Source: Myxococcota bacterium (GTDB lineage Bacteria > Myxococcota_A > UBA796). From it: a stretch of 64,000 nt of DNA. Position numbers and translations under genes: made by a program. The notes beneath the pieces are model-generated. The model worked only from the letters and a program-made list of their open reading frames with translations. It was not told the DNA's origin and did no database searches. Location of the stretch: NCBI GenBank assembly GCA_029251165.1, contig JAQXDW010000095.1, positions 4,423-68,422 of the forward strand, in the 5' to 3' direction. Every line of letters begins with the position of its first letter. Position 1 is the first letter of the stretch. Shown here piece after piece: positions 49,872 to 57,627 of the stretch.

Positions 49872-50435
49872 CTACTGGCGGATGCCCTCCAGGCTGATCG
49901 TCAGCTCAATGGGGCCGGGAATGCTGTCGGTCATCTCGGTCATGCCGTAGTCGGCGCGCTCGATGGAGACCGTCGTGTGGAAGCCCGCGCGGTGTCCTCC
50001 CCAGGGGTCGCTGCCCTCGCCGGTCGCCGTCAGATCGACCGTGATCTCTCGGCTCACGCCGTGCAGGGTGAGGGTTCCAGTGACGGCGTAGACCCCGCCG
50101 CTCTTGTCGGAGACGCTGGCGGAGACGAAGGTGATCTCCGGATGCTGCGCGGCGTCGAAGAAGTCCGGTCCGCGGAGGTGCTGATCCCGCTTGTCCTGGT
50201 CGGTGTCTACGCTGTCGGCCTGGACGACGAGGGACAGGCTCAGCGCGGTCGGTGTGCTGCGGTCCCAGTTGAAGTGACCGGAGATCGTATTGAACCGACC
50301 ATAGGTGTAGGACACGCCGAGGTGGCTGGCCTTGAAGATGACCGCTGAGTGGTCATCGTCGATGCTGTAGGGGGCAGCAGCAGCAGCGCCGCCACCCAGC
50401 AGGGCAGCGGCGAGTACAGCGAGCGCAGTGAGCAT
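49872..50435 (-). CDS. yceI: YceI-family polyisoprenoid-binding protein
   Basis: YSIDDDHSAVIFKASHLG...GRF, SVDT...RDQHLRGPDFFDAAQHPEITFVS, GTLTLHGVS, DPWG. Confidence 0.9.
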   Translation of the reverse strand: MLTALAVLAAALLGGGAAAAAPYSIDDDHSAVIFKASHLGVSYTYGRFNTISGHFNWDRSTPTALSLSLVVQADSVDTDQDKRDQHLRGPDFFDAAQHPEITFVSASVSDKSGGVYAVTGTLTLHGVSREITVDLTATGEGSDPWGGHRAGFHTTVSIERADYGMTEMTDSIPGPIELTISLEGIRQ

Positions 50436-50521: not shown

Positions 50522-51004
50522 CTACAGCTCCATCGTCCATGGCACGGAGAGGTGACCATCATCATCGATGAGCGTGAACTCGACGACGTAGCCGGTGGAG
50601 GACTCACACCAGAGGTCGTAGTCCCGCTCTCGCCAGAAGGTCGTGCACTTTCCGGTGCCACAGTAGAGCGTCTCGGCGAACATGAACTCGCCGTCTGGGT
50701 TGTAGACATTGATGCCTTCGAAGGCGTTGTCAATGTTGGGATCACCCTGAGGATCTTCAAAATCAACCGCTGCGACCCAGCGGTAACCGTTCTCCCCTCA
50801 ACAATCGACGTAGTCACACCAGGCGTCAGCAGACAGAATCTGCGGAGCATCCGGGTGATCATCTACAACCTCTGAGTAGTTGTTGTTGTCCTGTCCGGAC
50901 ATGTTGCTAATGTTGATGGCCGTCTCGTCATCATCATCTTCGAAGTCACTTCCGCGACCGCAACCGATGAGAAGGAGTCCGCCCAAGAGGGCTAGTCTTT
51001 CCAT
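50522..51004 (-). CDS. 160-codon lipoprotein with in-frame TGA at codon 69 (candidate selenoprotein, otherwise pseudogene)
   Basis: GGAGG RBS, MERLALLGGLLLIGC; ...AWCDYVDC-TGA-GENGYRWVAAVDFEDPQG... stays open for 91 more codons to TAG at 50524-50522. Confidence 0.7.
50766..50784 (-). promoter_or_regulatory. SECIS-like stem-loop
   Basis: ACCGCUG-GGUCG-CAGCGGU (7-bp stem) begins 13 nt after the in-frame UGA. Confidence 0.5.
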
Positions 51005-51170
51005 TGGAGAACCTCCAGAGATTCTCGGACAGCGTACCCTGGAATCGGCCAATCAAGGCGATATCTTCCGTAAGATACGTGTCAGCAGGCGGGAGCAGGA
51101 GGTCCGCTCGCTCCCGAGGTTATCCCCACGTTCTCTGCTCAGTCGTGCAATCTCGCTGCTCGCTGGACTC

Positions 51171-52412
51171 TCAGTACAGCGCGAACGGCAGGACGATCTT
51201 TTCGTCAATTTCGCTTGAAAATCGCCAAGAATAAGCCCGCAGAACGATGCACTTCTCCAGGGCATCGTCCCCGGTGGTGTTGGCGTTGACCTCCGCCATC
51301 ACGACCCGACCGCCGAGGATGTCCACCTCGACCTCGAGGCGACCGGAGAGGGTGGGATCGTCGCGGAGGCGGCGCTCATAGCAGGATCGGATCTGGCGCT
51401 GGTAGTCTCGGACCTGATCGCGGATGGCGGCGGACGGCGCCCCCCTGCGGGGTGCGTGGGTGATCGGCTCTGGGAGCCACTGCTCTGGCTCTGGTCGGGT
51501 GAGCGGCGCGGCGGCGATGAGCACCTCACCGACCTCAGCGCGATCGATCTGAACGGTGAGATCACCGATCCGGCTGCTGCTGCCTCGCGGGCCTTCCTGC
51601 TGGGTGAGGTCGACGTAGTCCTCGAGGCTCTCCAGGTCGGTCTGCCGAAGGAGGGCGATGATGTCGTTGGGGAGGTCAGGATCGGGGAGTCCACCAGCCT
51701 CGGGCTGATCGAGCATTAGCTCGCGGAGACGCTGGTCGAGGTTGCGGGGAGCCTCGCCAAACAGCCGCCCGCTCTCGCCGCCGGTCGGCTCCATGACATC
51801 GGCGACGGCATCCAGCTCTGGCGGCGGCGGCTGGTCTCCGTCGTCCTCATCGGGGGCGGGCGGGGTGGTGTCCATCGGAATGGAGACGAACCGGTCAGGG
51901 ATGTCGCTGAGCTGGACCCGATCTGGGATGGTGGTGCCCAGGGCAAACAGCACCAGCGCAGCCATGAGGGTCGAGAACAGCGACAGCGCGGCCAGCAGAG
52001 GGCCGGAGTCCGGCTCCAGCAGCCGGGGTCGGAACTGGCCGGAGCGGGGAAGCGCCTCGGGCGCTTCTTGGGTGAAGGTGACGTCGAGGGTCAGCCCGCC
52101 GAGCCGAAGCTCCAGCCGATCCGCAGCCGTCAGCGGCAGCCGTCCCCCCGGTCTCCAGAGGCTGCTCAGCTCTCGGCAGCCGTCGCCGCGCCAGAGGGTT
52201 CCCTCCAGGGCCGCCGACAGCTGGAGCTGGTGCCCGTCATCTCCTGCAGTGATGAGGGTGTGGGAGTCGGAGAGGCCCGGAAGTGAGAAGGTGTCCGTCG
52301 GCCTCGGCCCCAGGATCACGTGCTCGGTCAGCGGCAGCCGGCGCACGCTGTCAGGCCCATCCCCGGTGCGGAGGGTGAGCTTTAGAGCACGAGGCTGGTG
52401 GTGGGGACTCAT
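51171..52412 (-). CDS. AgmX/PglI C-terminal (TonB-C-like) domain membrane protein, GltG-like
   Basis: N-terminal FHA-like beta region, one TM, Pro/acidic linker, C-terminal QIRSCYERRLRDDPTLSGRL...CI....W.F...PF. Confidence 0.75.
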   Translation of the reverse strand: MSPHHQPRALKLTLRTGDGPDSVRRLPLTEHVILGPRPTDTFSLPGLSDSHTLITAGDDGHQLQLSAALEGTLWRGDGCRELSSLWRPGGRLPLTAADRLELRLGGLTLDVTFTQEAPEALPRSGQFRPRLLEPDSGPLLAALSLFSTLMAALVLFALGTTIPDRVQLSDIPDRFVSIPMDTTPPAPDEDDGDQPPPPELDAVADVMEPTGGESGRLFGEAPRNLDQRLRELMLDQPEAGGLPDPDLPNDIIALLRQTDLESLEDYVDLTQQEGPRGSSSRIGDLTVQIDRAEVGEVLIAAAPLTRPEPEQWLPEPITHAPRRGAPSAAIRDQVRDYQRQIRSCYERRLRDDPTLSGRLEVEVDILGGRVVMAEVNANTTGDDALEKCIVLRAYSWRFSSEIDEKIVLPFALY

Positions 52413-53222: not shown

Positions 53223-54803
53223 TCAGAGGGGCTCGACCTCATGCAGTTCTAGACCCGGGGCGTTCTGGAGGGCGAAGTTCATCGGCCAGAGGCTGTCGGA
53301 GAGGAGAACGGGCTGGTCGTTGCGATCGCGGAGGACGGGGTAGTCGCGACGATCCTCCAGCCACTTCAGGGCCTCCTCAGAGCCGCTGATCCAGCGGGCA
53401 TACTGATAGGACAGCCGCTCCAGGATGCACTTGACCCGGTACTCATTGAGCAGCCGCTCCTTGAGGACTTCAAACTGGAGCACGCCGACCGCGCCGAGGT
53501 AGGGCGCCTGTCGACCGACATCGGGACGGTAGAAGAGCTGGATGACGCCCTCGTGGGCGAGCTGAGTCAGCCCGGCATCGAGCTGCTTGCGCTTCATCGG
53601 ATCCTTGAGGATGACCCGCGCGAAGTGCTCCGGAGCAAACCGGGGGATCCCGTCATACGCCAGCCGACGACTGACCGCGAGGGTGTCTCCGATCCGGAGC
53701 TTGCCCGGATCGTACAGGCCGACGATGTCACCGGGAAAGGCCTCCTCGACGATGCTGCGCTCCTGCGCCATGAAGGTGTGAGGGTTGGAGAGCCGGAGCT
53801 GCTCTCCGGAGCGGCCGATGGTGACATCGATGCCGCGGGTGAACTGCCCGCTGACCACCCGCATGAACGCCACCCGGTCTCGGTGACGGGGGTTCATGTT
53901 CGCTTGGATCTTAAAGATAAAGCCGGTGAATTCGTCATCATCAGGCCGGATCTCTTCGCCGTCGCTCGTCATGCGAGAGCCTGGTGAGGCCGACTCCGCT
54001 GCGACGAACTTCAGCAGCGGCTCGACGCCAAAGTTGGTCAGGGCGCTGCCCCAGAAGATCGGAGACAGCTCACCCGCGAAGAACTCCTCCTCGGTGAACG
54101 GATCCCCGGCTCCCTCCAGCAGCTCCAGCTCTTCGAGGACCTCGTTGTAGACCTTGCTGCCCAGGCGCTCCTCGGCATCGTCGAGGTGCATGGTCTCGGT
54201 GGTGAGGACGCTGGCGCCCTTGTCTCCGCCAGAGAACAGCAGGACCTGGCGGGTGCGCAGATCGACGACGCCCTGGAACTCCTTGCCCATTCCGATCGGC
54301 CAGTTGATCGGAGCGACCCGGAGGTTGAGGGTGGAGGAGATGTCCTCGAGGAGGTCGAGGGGGTCGAGGCCGGGGCGGTCCAGCTTGTTCATGAAGGTGA
54401 TCATGGGCAGGTTGCGCATCCGGCAGACCTCGAAGAGCTTGCGCGTCCGAGACTCGACTCCCTTGGAGTGATCCACCAGCATCACCGCGCTGTCGACGGC
54501 GGCGAGGACCCGGTAGGTGTCCTCGGAGAAGTCCGCGTGGCCGGGGGTGTCCAGCAGGTTGAGCGCTGCGTTCTCGTACTCGAACTGGAGCACCGAGGAG
54601 GTGATCGAGATCCCGCGCTCCTGCTCCAGCTTCATCCAGTCGCTGACCGCATGGCGGGAGGACTTCCGGGACTTGACCGATCCGGCGAGGTGGATGGCAC
54701 CGGAGTACAGCAGCAGCTTCTCGGTGAGGGTGGTCTTACCGGCATCGGGGTGCGAGATGATTCCGAACGTCCGGCGACGTCGGGCCTGCTCTGCGACGGA
54801 CAT
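53223..54803 (-). CDS. prfC: Peptide chain release factor 3
   Basis: RRRTFGIISHPDAGKTTLTEKLLL, SDWMKLEQERGISITSS, DTPGHADFSEDTYR, FKIQANMNPRHRDR, GAVGVLQFEV. Confidence 0.97.
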   Translation of the reverse strand: MSVAEQARRRRTFGIISHPDAGKTTLTEKLLLYSGAIHLAGSVKSRKSSRHAVSDWMKLEQERGISITSSVLQFEYENAALNLLDTPGHADFSEDTYRVLAAVDSAVMLVDHSKGVESRTRKLFEVCRMRNLPMITFMNKLDRPGLDPLDLLEDISSTLNLRVAPINWPIGMGKEFQGVVDLRTRQVLLFSGGDKGASVLTTETMHLDDAEERLGSKVYNEVLEELELLEGAGDPFTEEEFFAGELSPIFWGSALTNFGVEPLLKFVAAESASPGSRMTSDGEEIRPDDDEFTGFIFKIQANMNPRHRDRVAFMRVVSGQFTRGIDVTIGRSGEQLRLSNPHTFMAQERSIVEEAFPGDIVGLYDPGKLRIGDTLAVSRRLAYDGIPRFAPEHFARVILKDPMKRKQLDAGLTQLAHEGVIQLFYRPDVGRQAPYLGAVGVLQFEVLKERLLNEYRVKCILERLSYQYARWISGSEEALKWLEDRRDYPVLRDRNDQPVLLSDSLWPMNFALQNAPGLELHEVEPL

Positions 54804-54843: not shown

Positions 54844-55599
54844 TCACCGCTTCCGACGCCCCTTTCGGATCCCCTTCTCGGCTTCCTCCCGAATGAATCG
54901 GTTGACTCCGCCGGGCTGCTCGGCGAGGACCATCTCGACGATGTCGGGGCTGGAGACCGCCCAGGTGCGCATCACCCGGGCGACGGCCTTGCGGACATGG
55001 GGGTCGCGATCCTTCAGCGCACGGGGGAGCACGCCCTGGAGAAGGGCATCGATCGGCTCCTGGACGAACGCGACCTTCTTCTGCTTGAGCCGCGCCCGGA
55101 GCGCTGCTGCGGCAGGACCCTCGATGGGGATGGGCAGGGTGGCCATCAGCGCGATGACTGCGGTGCGGCGCCGGATCGGAGAGGACTCGGAGAGCAGCTC
55201 GTTGAGGTGCTCGACGAACGGCTCGCCGGTCGCCAGGAGGCCGGGGCCGAGCAAGAGCCAGCCGATGGCATCAGCGGTGTCGAGGTCATCAGCGACCTCC
55301 ATCCAGCGCTCGGCGAGGTCGAGGGCGGAGTCGGGGGCGTCAGGGAGCGCGGCGGCGGTCAGCCCGATCGCGACGAGGCCGTCTTCGTGGGCGGTCCGGA
55401 ACAGCCGCGCGAGCCCCTCGCAGTCCTGAGGCAGGGTCACGCCGTTGTTCTTCCAGGCAGACACCAGGACGGAGACAACCTCTCGGGAGGGCACCCCACG
55501 AAGCCCCTTGAGCGGTGAGATATGACGCGAGACCCGGCGGGCGTGGCCTTCATCGGCGACGGCTTCGAGCTGGGAAGAGATGGTCTGGGGACTGAGCAT
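54844..55599 (-). CDS. DNA alkylation repair (AlkD-like) HEAT-repeat protein
   Basis: LRGVP, LF...HED, W....D..DTAD, DRDPHVRKAVARVMR, RFIREEA.K. Confidence 0.65.
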   Translation of the reverse strand: MLSPQTISSQLEAVADEGHARRVSRHISPLKGLRGVPSREVVSVLVSAWKNNGVTLPQDCEGLARLFRTAHEDGLVAIGLTAAALPDAPDSALDLAERWMEVADDLDTADAIGWLLLGPGLLATGEPFVEHLNELLSESSPIRRRTAVIALMATLPIPIEGPAAAALRARLKQKKVAFVQEPIDALLQGVLPRALKDRDPHVRKAVARVMRTWAVSSPDIVEMVLAEQPGGVNRFIREEAEKGIRKGRRKR

Positions 55600-55650
55600 C
55601 GGTGTGGCTTATCACGATGGCTGCGCGCTATCCTAGAAGGAGGAGGGCCG

Positions 55651-57627
55651 ATGCACTTGTTTGTCTTGTTGATGGTGCTCGCATGCGACACCACAGACAC
55701 TGTCGTTGAGGGCGGCAGCCTGTCGACAGCAGATGCAGACGGTGACGGCTACACCGAGGGCACCGGAGACTGCGACGACTCCAGCGCCGCGCTCTCGCCC
55801 AGCGCCATCGAGGTCTGCGACGGCATCGACAATGACTGCGACGGCGAAATCGATGAGGGCGCGACCCAGACCCTCTACGCAGACCGTGACGACGACGGCT
55901 ACGGCGACCCCGACGACACCGTAGAGGTCTGCAGCCAGCTGTCTGGCTACGTCATCATCGGGACCGACTGCGACGACACCACCTCCGATGTCTATCCTGG
56001 CGGCCTGGAGGTCTGCGACGAGCGCGACAACGACTGCAACGGGGTGGTCGATGAGGGCGTCGGCAGCGTCTACTATGCCGATCCAGATGCCGACGGTGCC
56101 GGGGATCCCCAGTCCACCATCATCGCCTGCCAGCCGCCCGCTGGCTACGTCATCAACGACACCGACTGCGACAGCGCCGACGGCAGCGTCTCGCCCAACG
56201 CCGTCGAGCTGTGCGATGACATCGACAATGACTGCGACGGGGAGACCGACGAAGACGACGCCGCAGACGCGGCCACCTGGTACGCCGATGCCGACTCCGA
56301 TGACCACGGAGATCCGAACACCACCCTCGTCTCTTGCGCGGCGGACATCGGCTACATCGACGTCGCTGGAGACTGCGACGACTCCGATGACGACAGCTAC
56401 CCCGGCGGCGAGGAGGTCTGCGACGGGGCGGACAACGACTGCGACGGAGAGACCGACGAGGCCTCCGCGACCGACGCAGAGACGTACTACGCCGACAGCG
56501 ACAGCGACGGCTACGGCACCGACGCCTACACCACCGCTGCCTGCGAGCCGCCCGCTGGCTATGTCGAGAACACCGACGACTGCGACGACACCGATGCCGC
56601 CACCAGCCCGGACGGCGAGGAGGTCTGCGACGGAGCGGACAACGACTGCAACGGGGACATCGATGATGGCGTGATGATCCCGTGGTACCTCGACTACGAC
56701 GGCGATGGTTACGGCGATCCAGACGCCGAGGTCTCAGCCTGCGAGGCGCCCAGCGGGCTGTACCTCGCGGACGCTGGAGACTGCGACGACCTCAACGACG
56801 CGATCAACCCCGACGCCGCCACGGTCTGCGACGACGCCGACAACAACTGCGACGGCAACATCGACAGCGACGACGACGGCGACGGCTACTCCGATCTCCT
56901 CTGCGGCGGAACCGACTGCGACGACACCGACGCCTCGGTCCTCCCCGAGGTCGGCGGCGGCTGCCCGATGGGCCTCTCTTGCAAGGACATCCTCGATGCC
57001 GGCCTCTCCAGCGGCGACGACGTCTACATGATCGACATCGACGGCTACGGCGAGGGCCTGGACTCCTGGGAGGTCTACTGCGACATGACCACCGATGATG
57101 GAGGCTGGACGCTGCTGGGCAAGACGGTGAAGTCCGGGCTGTCCACCACCGAGCGAACCACCATCACCGGCGGAGACTGGCAGGCCTACAGCAGCGACGG
57201 CTACGGCGATCCAGAGACGTCGTCCAGGCTCTTCTGGCTGCCCCTGGAGCAGTGGTATGAGCTGACCGCGCTGTTCCCAGACAACGTCCTGTGGATCGCG
57301 GACTCCGACATCGATCTGCAGATGCAGAACGTCTCCGTCAGCGACGAGGGAAACGACTTCGAGATCGACTGGGACGGTGCGGTCGCTGGCTACAACGAGA
57401 TCCTCTCTGGGGACATCCGCGGCCTGCCGTTTACGACCCATGACGAGGACAACGATGGCTGGGTGTCGGGCAACTGCGCGAGCGGCTACGTCGGCGACAA
57501 CGGCGGCTTCTGGTACGACAACTGCTACGAGAGCAGCATGCTGCACGCCGACGGCAACATCTACTCCTGGGCGGAGGATGCCGCGACCTCAGTCAGCAGC
57601 ATGTACCTGTACTTCCGCGAAGACTGA
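55651..57627 (+). CDS. Lipoprotein with MopE-like Asp/Cys repeats and C-terminal fibrinogen-related domain
   Basis: AGGAGG RBS, LMVLAC; repeated Y.D.D.DGYG...C...GY....DCDD...P...EVCDG.DNDC.G; SCKDIL, VYCDMTTDDGGWTL, FTTHDEDND...NCA...GGFWYDNC. Confidence 0.88.
   Translation: MHLFVLLMVLACDTTDTVVEGGSLSTADADGDGYTEGTGDCDDSSAALSPSAIEVCDGIDNDCDGEIDEGATQTLYADRDDDGYGDPDDTVEVCSQLSGYVIIGTDCDDTTSDVYPGGLEVCDERDNDCNGVVDEGVGSVYYADPDADGAGDPQSTIIACQPPAGYVINDTDCDSADGSVSPNAVELCDDIDNDCDGETDEDDAADAATWYADADSDDHGDPNTTLVSCAADIGYIDVAGDCDDSDDDSYPGGEEVCDGADNDCDGETDEASATDAETYYADSDSDGYGTDAYTTAACEPPAGYVENTDDCDDTDAATSPDGEEVCDGADNDCNGDIDDGVMIPWYLDYDGDGYGDPDAEVSACEAPSGLYLADAGDCDDLNDAINPDAATVCDDADNNCDGNIDSDDDGDGYSDLLCGGTDCDDTDASVLPEVGGGCPMGLSCKDILDAGLSSGDDVYMIDIDGYGEGLDSWEVYCDMTTDDGGWTLLGKTVKSGLSTTERTTITGGDWQAYSSDGYGDPETSSRLFWLPLEQWYELTALFPDNVLWIADSDIDLQMQNVSVSDEGNDFEIDWDGAVAGYNEILSGDIRGLPFTTHDEDNDGWVSGNCASGYVGDNGGFWYDNCYESSMLHADGNIYSWAEDAATSVSSMYLYFRED

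Follow-up and report, generated by a model that had tools for sequence, protein, structure and literature searches.

Results

A lipoprotein gene with an in-frame UGA codon

The window analyzed here is a 64,000-nucleotide stretch of contig JAQXDW010000095.1 (C87 in our numbering) from an 8.0-Mb metagenome-assembled genome (MAG; completeness 90.75%, contamination 7.75%; G000) of a Myxococcota bacterium. Its minus strand carries, at 50522-51004, a gene that we propose encodes a lipoprotein with selenocysteine (Sec) at an in-frame UGA codon. The gene begins with an ATG at 51004, reaches a TGA at 50800-50798 (codon 69), where the program used to list open reading frames (ORFs) ends the ORF, and stays open for 91 further codons up to a TAG stop at 50524-50522. 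Read through, it comprises 160 codons plus the stop, and its orthologues align over the full length. Orthologous DNA was compared from four sources: the source genome, a second genome of the same genus (G001) and two metagenome contigs (L049 and L050). A Shine-Dalgarno-like GGAGG lies 7 nt upstream of the ATG (51012-51016, minus strand), and this block is conserved in all four orthologues. An earlier note on this DNA had described the TGA, the open frame beyond it and a hairpin a short distance downstream; all of these features were present, the peptide quoted there was reproduced exactly, and the five cysteines it assigned to the mature protein were counted at residues 63, 68, 115, 120 and 133, besides the lipobox Cys15.

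The accuracy of the TGA was assessed with independent data. Two DNA runs, belonging to two studies, gave assembled contigs that matched the window across the TGA, and two metatranscriptome libraries gave contigs that bridged both the TGA and the hairpin. A sequencing error at 50798-50800, which the earlier note had considered, is excluded by these two DNA runs and two RNA libraries together with three further assemblies that have the same TGA.

The low-depth contigs from the RNA libraries differed from the window at two positions. One change, at 50790 (codon 72, Asn to Ile), lies in the spacer, and the other, at 50762 (codon 81, Asp to Glu), is a variant shared by L049, G001 and L050. Both differences spare the TGA and the stem.

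A SECIS-like hairpin follows the UGA

A perfect 7-bp stem begins 13 nt after the TGA. It is made up of a 5' arm, ACCGCTG (50784-50778), a loop, GGTCG (50777-50773), and a 3' arm, CAGCGGT (50772-50766). In the RNA, this corresponds to a candidate upper stem-loop of a selenocysteine insertion sequence (SECIS), ACCGCUG/GGUCG/CAGCGGU (50766-50784, minus strand), whose loop starts 20 nt after the UGA. The hairpin alone folds at -12.0 kcal/mol (z-score -2.5), a value equalled by 1 of 200 shuffled sequences. According to the accessible text of PMC13188914, a bacterial SECIS has a loop of 3-9 nt, an upper stem of 4-16 bp, a G in the first two loop positions, a distance of 16-37 nt from the UGA and a minimum free energy of -7.5 kcal/mol or lower. 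The candidate falls within each of these limits, with a 5-nt loop that opens with GG, a 7-bp stem, a distance of 20 nt and a fold of -12.0 kcal/mol.

The source genome was scanned for perfect Watson-Crick stems of at least 7 bp that enclose a 3-6-nt loop starting with GGT, 17-23 nt downstream of a TGA. Such hairpins followed only 19 of the 235,307 TGA triplets in the genome (8e-5), and these 19 include the TGAs of selD, of the gene described here and of an ArsC-family Sec candidate.

Comparison of the orthologues gave one informative difference within the stem. The hairpin is identical in L049 and G001 and is hence uninformative on covariation. In L050, two substitutions convert the fifth pair from C-G to A-U while the loop is invariant, and the fold remains at -10 kcal/mol despite the changed pair. 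One substitution is synonymous (CGC to CGA, Arg) and the other replaces Ala with Ser (GCG to UCG). The change is compensatory at the RNA level, and it came at the cost of an amino-acid replacement.

The source genome contains selenocysteine machinery and other Sec genes

A tRNA-Sec gene was found in the source genome (65.3 bits; gathering score 47), with the anticodon UCA assigned by ARAGORN. Profile matches above curated cut-offs were obtained for selB (311 bits), selA (501 bits) and selD (354 bits), and selD has its own in-frame TGA at the usual site (...VECAG-U-ASKLG...). The full set of Sec genes on which the earlier note had made its proposal depend is thus present. The same-genus genome G001 also contains tRNA-Sec and selB, and selB scored above the cut-off in 131 of the 154 genomes of the order.

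In-frame TGA codons, one each, were also seen in selD (C24:43482), in a gene for an Fdh-like molybdopterin protein (C130:44235) and in a Rdx/SelW-like gene (C121:239995). All three are followed by a GG-loop hairpin 18-22 nt downstream, and they serve here as the in-genome SECIS reference set. Outside the window, the TGA at 331086 (+) of contig C6 lies within an ArsC-family ORF (PF03960, 37.6 bits; ...ICTRT-U-STCRKA...) and is followed by a 7-bp hairpin; this ORF is probably another selenoprotein of the genome.

The loops of these elements and their distances from the UGA were GGU at 20 nt for selD, GGUCU at 18 nt for the Fdh-like gene, GGUC at 17 nt for the ArsC-like gene and (A)GGA(U) at about 22 nt for Rdx. 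With GGUCG at 20 nt, the candidate hairpin fits the SECIS pattern of the genome's own Sec genes.

The TGA is conserved and the downstream codons are under purifying selection

The TGA occupies the same codon in all four orthologous DNAs, whose proteins are 98% (L049), 90% (G001) and 74% (L050) identical to that of the source genome. More diverged relatives were sought by an exhaustive HMMER search over 1.84 billion representatives and by a word-based search for short proteins. Nine clusters of predicted proteins of 67-69 residues were recovered, with identities of 46-100%, and all of them end in ...CDY(V/T)(D/E)C; further fragments begin directly past this end. Gene callers typically produce fragment ends of this kind at Sec codons. 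The diverged fragments (P0064, P0005, P0006, P0007 and P0012) are known from predicted proteins alone, in which neither the identity of the stop as TGA nor the hairpin is seen. Homologues of the read-through protein were found in 37 of 61 related genomes and, by profile, in 88 of the 154 genomes of the order. Because these homologues span the position as single ORFs, the TGA interrupts one single domain.

Codons on both sides of the TGA were compared for signs of selection. G000 and G001 differ at 15 sites past the TGA, of which 12 are third codon positions, and the ratio of nonsynonymous (dN) to synonymous (dS) divergence, omega, is 0.16. For codons 70-106 of G000 and L050, dS is 0.74 and dN is 0.097 (omega 0.13), with 13 of 19 differences at the third position. 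Overall, omega ranges from 0.07 to 0.11 upstream of the TGA and from 0.13 to 0.18 downstream. Codons 70-107 hold a near-invariant W76 and a DPQG motif, and no in-frame ATG, GTG or TTG occurs there in any of the four orthologues. Conservation of the nucleotide sequence collapses right past the TAG and in the 5' intergenic region. Since codons 70-106 are under purifying selection and have no in-frame start, they can be translated only by reading through UGA69.

This result bears directly on two other explanations of the locus. One is that the gene is a pseudogene, in which an ordinary nonsense mutation in a lipoprotein gene is followed by a hairpin that arose by chance. Public collections list the gene just as a hypothetical protein of 67-68 residues (P0090, annotated with 68), distant homologues have residues other than Cys at the site, and hairpins of similar strength are found in a few homologues of the family that lack Sec, all of which would agree with a pseudogene. 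A decayed gene would not be expected to keep the same TGA in sequences as far apart as 74% identity, with fragments ending there down to 46%, nor to show an omega of 0.13-0.17 with third-position bias, no frameshift and no further stop beyond the TGA. Conservation stops exactly at the TAG, the stem shows the compensatory change described above, and a hairpin of this type follows very few of the TGA triplets in the genome. Protein divergence of 10-26% among the orthologues excludes assembly copies of one sequence. The second explanation is that two genes are present, one for a short lipopeptide and one for an independently translated C-terminal protein. Gene callers do predict a 53-residue ORF from ATG108 (P0002). 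This ORF leaves W76, DPQG and the constrained segment before codon 108 with no start in any orthologue; none of the four DNAs shifts frame between the two parts, and the homologues are single ORFs. With read-through as the only way to translate the segment, both explanations are in effect ruled out, and we regard each as highly improbable.

Synonymous divergence was uneven along the gene. Between G000 and G001 (L021 1501-1986) it was 0.89 upstream of the TGA and 0.175 downstream, and between G000 and L050 it was 1.30 and 0.91, respectively, a far weaker contrast. Recombination and RNA-level constraint are possibilities.

The proposed Sec type forms a subfamily within a family of Sec-free lipoproteins

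The homologues form a parent family of Sec-free Myxococcota lipoproteins that share with the Sec type the lipobox, an acidic linker, a domain of about 110 residues and four conserved cysteines. Cys 63, 115, 120 and 133 vary little or not at all across the family alignment, which also shows the motifs DAP.I..ADAWC, DPQG, C..G.C and D.DG..S.P. Three features are unique to the Sec subfamily: Cys68 (codon TGT, 50801-50803, minus strand), Sec69 and an inserted Asp64. Among the 73 remaining members, the residue at position 68 is most often Thr (25) or Asp (12), then Gly (8), Ala (7), Ser (6) and Glu (6), and position 69 is mainly Thr (34) or Val (11), followed by Asp, Ser and Glu (5 each) and Gly (4). 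The parent family thus differs from the Sec type in having Thr, Asp or Gly at 68 and Thr or Val at 69, in lacking the Asp64 insertion, in its usual end, ...GRQ(G), and in not being located beside a YceI gene.

The earlier note had paired the proposed Sec with a neighboring Cys and called the protein redox-active. The pair itself stands, as Cys68 and Sec69 are extra, subfamily-specific residues beside the four family-wide cysteines; its redox activity is a conjecture. The same note had held that homologues with a residue other than Cys at this codon, and with no hairpin, would point to an ordinary nonsense mutation. The outcome was divided: the orthologues keep both TGA and hairpin, and the distant homologues have Thr, Val, Asp and other residues at the site. 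That objection does not apply here because the TGA-containing orthologues make up a conserved subfamily of their own, with purifying selection downstream and a compensatory change in the stem.

Seven matches at the level of the order were flagged as containing one TGA. All were ordinary terminal stops, and none has Cys at the site.

The residues seen at this position also bear on a further explanation, namely that the UGA is read through without Sec, for example as a leaky stop stimulated by the hairpin and decoded by a near-cognate Trp or Cys tRNA, to give a selenium-free full-length protein. Selection downstream reveals read-through and is silent on the identity of the inserted residue, and, as no Cys homologue was found, a Sec/Cys pair that would favor Sec is missing. 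The spacing and GGU loop of the hairpin are nevertheless those of the genome's Sec genes, Sec machinery is present in both genomes that have the gene (G000 and G001), and the adjacent Cys68, specific to the subfamily, suits a Cys-Sec dyad. In addition, the UGA is kept in four DNAs and nine fragment clusters although a sense codon would yield far more product; a special meaning of the codon is therefore likely to be under selection. Selenium-free read-through is accordingly considered improbable, and incorporation of Sec is preferred.

The Sec type is narrowly distributed. Among reference genomes it was found only in one genus (g1), in 2 of 154 genomes of the order and 2 of 182 of the class (G000 and G001 in both cases), and a strict profile search of a phylum sample returned G000 alone among 401 genomes. 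The other Sec-type clusters come from metagenomes, and the gene occurs in runs whose labels read seawater, marine or sediment metagenome. In a quick maximum-likelihood tree, the three Sec-type sequences form one clade (SH-aLRT 100) with a long stem of 1.61 changes per site; the quick tree does not settle the placement of the clade within the family.

The parent family is often multicopy in the 88 genomes of the order that contain it. In some genomes the Sec-free members are in tandem duplicate (L028 1049-2158; L038 897-1905), with up to five copies per genome. Most of them end in ...GRQ(G), in many cases with a TDASGR tail after it that is missing from the Sec type. Some Sec-free members from among L073, L069, L072, L075 and L065 have a 6-7-bp hairpin at the place of the SECIS (residues 74-80), such as CCAGUG-GUCGG-CACUGG at 20 nt past the aligned codon.

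The protein is predicted to be a lipoprotein with an FN3-like domain

The N-terminus, MERLALLGGLLLIGC (50960-51004, minus strand), has the form of a lipoprotein signal peptide with the lipobox L-I-G-C at codons 12-15 (50960-50971). It agrees with the general lipobox pattern [LVI][ASTVI][GAS]C, and Cys15 is conserved in at least 90% of a 76-sequence alignment. An acidic low-complexity linker follows (residues 16-49; 50858-50959, minus strand) and is predicted to be disordered, with a predicted local distance difference test (pLDDT) score of 50-65 over residues 1-50; the linkers of homologues are rich in D, T and G and vary in length. Residues 50-160 (50525-50857, minus strand), which include the four family-wide cysteines, form in the AlphaFold2 model an all-beta block with pLDDT 88-97 that resembles a fibronectin type III (FN3) beta-sandwich. 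Conservation and topology together suggest the disulfide pairs C63-C133 and C115-C120. In the model, residues 68-69 are located at the turn between strands 55-68 and 71-83.

Structural comparison with VIA-align gave a best Z of 9.4, at which 92 residues superposed with a root-mean-square deviation of 2.4 A, and many FN3 domains were tied; across these domains Z ranged from 9.4 to 8.0 and the deviation from 2.3 to 3.6 A over 85-101 residues. The predicted FN3-like assignment is made at the level of the fold, a common scaffold that implies no function. Foldseek gave no match in the PDB at E <=1e-3, and its CopC-like matches (E about 0.02-0.04) were not used as evidence for copper binding. Pfam returned only a sub-threshold DUF7668 match for the protein (E 0.84) with no FN3 sequence match, and no Pfam family was common to more than 2 of the 76 family members; none of 5 family sequences was matched in NCBIfam. 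A protein-atlas search with the homologue P0003 gave weak leads, the best scoring 0.85, below the 0.9 line. The impression that the protein belongs to no recognized family extends to the wider family, for which neither Pfam nor NCBIfam contains a model.

The complete signal peptide and lipobox upstream of the UGA raise the possibility of two products. Where selenium or SelB runs short, termination would give a lipopeptide of 68 residues, the last of them Cys; insertion of Sec would give the full-length protein, and the UGA would thus act as a selenium-dependent switch. In bacteria, insertion of Sec is inefficient and in competition with release factor 2; the available part of PMC8659212 puts read-through at 1-3% of the level for common amino acids. 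The 68-residue piece would hold no more than the opening beta-strand of a domain that every homologue has as a single unit, and nothing points to a function of its own. Such a switch, which would add to the selenoprotein reading and is not exclusive of it, is considered doubtful.

The candidate Sec gene is followed by a YceI-like gene

A YceI-like gene (PF04264, E 2.4e-42; 49872-50435, minus strand) lies 86 nt downstream of the Sec gene on the same strand and is probably co-transcribed with it. YceI proteins are periplasmic and bind isoprenoid quinones. Upstream, at 51171-52412 (minus strand), is a gene for a 413-aa protein with no Pfam match that is present in L049, L050 and G001 at 69-96% identity. 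At all four Sec-type loci, the gene is located between a protein of about 415 aa of unrecognized family and the YceI-like gene, which is 58-86 nt downstream on the same strand. A YceI gene was present at none of the non-Sec homologue loci examined (about 1.5 kb of flank each).

The other neighbors in the window include Sel1-repeat and RF3 genes. The latter, prfC (release factor 3; 53223-54803, minus strand), is 2.2 kb upstream of the recoded gene, and a gene at 55522-57627 (plus strand) encodes a 701-aa protein with six MopE-type putative copper-binding motifs and a fibrinogen C domain. In G001 (L021 793-1443, plus strand), an extra ORF of about 216 aa separates the Sec gene from the conserved 413-aa gene. 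By eye it resembles a LuxR/GerE-type regulator, and it is absent from G000, L049 and L050.

Discussion

The gene as a probable selenoprotein gene

The Sec machinery of the genome, conservation of the TGA, selection on the codons downstream and the compensatory change in the stem together support the interpretation first put forward in the earlier note, that of a new selenoprotein. We estimate a probability of roughly 85% that standard bacterial recoding turns the product of the minus-strand gene at 51004-50522 into a selenoprotein of 160 residues.

Several observations weigh against this interpretation, the first group concerning the hairpin. Wider windows around it are unremarkable, with z-scores of -1.5 (71 nt) and -1.3 (46 nt), and the covariation consists of a single event in a single sequence, L050. 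The equivalent 27 nt of 43 non-Sec homologues, used as a control, fold at a mean of -5.6 kcal/mol, and 2 of the 43 reach -10 kcal/mol or lower. Four of the 43 pass loose SECIS criteria combined with a stem of at least 7 bp, and the published criteria are therefore permissive in this GC-rich family. A second group concerns the available data. The gene and the Sec machinery are on separate contigs of a MAG whose contamination was noted above, and the contigs from RNA libraries are no proof of transcription. The third group concerns the absence of a Cys counterpart. No Cys occurs at position 68 or 69 in any of the 73 homologues, no Cys homologue was found in searches of the order, class or phylum, and a word-based search of 5.8 billion protein clusters returned no near-full-length close relative. 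Nearly all accepted selenoproteins have Cys homologues, as far as the available text of PMC12013277 states. A Sec/Cys pair is a usual accompaniment of selenoproteins and not a mechanistic requirement.

Proposed mechanism and function

In the proposed mechanism, SelB with Sec-tRNA(Sec) would bind the ACCGCUG-GGUCG-CAGCGGU stem-loop that starts 13 nt past UGA69, the codon would be recoded to selenocysteine, and the ribosome would carry on to the TAG. The product would then be exported and lipid-anchored at Cys15 of the LIGC lipobox, and a disordered acidic linker, about 35 residues long, would tether the domain to the anchor. The FN3-like body is presumably stabilized by two disulfides among the four family-wide cysteines. 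The Cys68-Sec69 dyad would be positioned at the exposed tip of the first beta-hairpin, where it could form a reversible selenenylsulfide and serve as a redox center of the envelope, possibly together with the YceI-like protein. The conserved position of the YceI-like neighbor suggests a possible electron partner.

By analogy with known Cys-Sec centers, a redox-active selenenylsulfide in the envelope is tentatively favored as the function, at somewhat less than even odds. A binding site for a soft metal or metalloid is the main alternative and is considered less likely. No thiol-redox or metal-handling gene was found as a conserved neighbor at the Sec-type loci.

Origin and significance

The hairpins seen in non-Sec homologues indicate that the coding sequence of the family has an intrinsic propensity to form a hairpin at this spot, and such a pre-existing propensity may have eased the birth of a SECIS. 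The evidence leans modestly toward a de novo origin, in which Sec, the adjacent Cys and an insertion of one residue appeared together where a non-enzymatic FN3-like envelope lipoprotein had a Thr/Val loop position, possibly from a 'proto-SECIS' hairpin. On the same reading, and with the same modest confidence, no earlier family of bacterial selenoproteins would be known whose Sec had not taken the place of a catalytic Cys.

The discovery of bacterial selenoproteins leans heavily on Cys homologues aligned with the UGA, and the gene described here is a well-supported candidate that breaks this pattern. By the account of the deep-Sep authors in the accessible text of PMC12013277, Cys homologues now seem to exist for every known selenoprotein, and candidates without them are discarded by that pipeline. 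If confirmed, the gene would define a new family of exported selenoproteins built on a non-enzymatic FN3-like scaffold, and it would be a natural vicinal Cys-Sec center in a bacterial envelope lipoprotein. It would also represent a recent, datable birth of a Sec codon and SECIS within a coding sequence, confined to one genus-level lineage of an order in which selB (131/154) and the Sec-free parent family (88/154) are widely present. If the de novo reading is true, Sec can be recruited to make a new reactive center on a binding scaffold; pipelines based on Sec/Cys pairs would then systematically miss such genes, and the prokaryotic selenoproteome would be larger than catalogued.

Comparison with known systems

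The C-terminal Gly-Cys-Sec-Gly redox center of eukaryotic thioredoxin reductase forms a selenenylsulfide on the tail of a flavoenzyme, and its SECIS is located in the 3' untranslated region. The candidate resembles it in having an adjacent Cys-Sec followed by Gly (here D-C-U-G) in an exposed, probably mobile element, and the same eight-membered selenenylsulfide ring could form. The earlier note had drawn this parallel. Unlike the reductase, the candidate has an internal Sec (residue 69 of 160) at the beta-hairpin turn of a small FN3-like domain, and no oxidoreductase, flavin or nucleotide domain was found in it by Pfam or in the model, which sets it apart from a center of the thioredoxin reductase type.

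Cys-Sec (CU) dipeptides are also known from the selenoproteins of the SAO system (MerB-like, SaoB, SaoX and SaoC), and the authors link them to the handling of metals or organometals in the portion of the preprint available (Haft & Gwadz, bioRxiv 10.1101/2022.07.06.499078). The candidate shares with these proteins the Cys-Sec dipeptide and the truncation of database entries at CU, and several SAO proteins are likewise exported or lipoproteins. As described in that portion, SAO proteins are ABC-transporter binding proteins, MerB relatives or CC-COOH proteins, encoded in a nine-gene neighborhood of strict anaerobes. The candidate has an FN3-like fold, YceI-like and 413-aa neighbors and a marine Myxococcota host; neither the nine-gene neighborhood nor an ABC substrate-binding or MerB-like fold was found, and it is set apart from the SAO system by those descriptions. 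A literature search that included a 2026 selenoproteome review, deep-Sep, GOS and the Haft preprint found the family undescribed in the texts as available, the supplementary sequence sets of which may hold it.

The closest likeness is to canonical SelB/SECIS genes such as E. coli fdhF and the genome's own selD. Common to all are an in-frame UGA with a stem-loop directly after it in the coding region, a GG(U) that opens a small apical loop about 20 nt downstream, and a genome with tRNA-Sec, selA, selB and selD. The specific resemblance to the fdhF loop that the earlier note had pointed out is rough. In fdhF, G23 and U24 of the apical loop are essential, the stem-loop starts 11 nt after the UGA and the stem has a bulged U17, according to the part of PMC8659212 available. 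On the same numbering, the apical loop of the candidate has G24-G25-U26, and the bulged U has no counterpart. The unusual trait of the gene is a proposed Sec without a Cys counterpart among the relatives found; the protein family is new, and the site at which it is recoded is of the canonical SelB/SECIS type.

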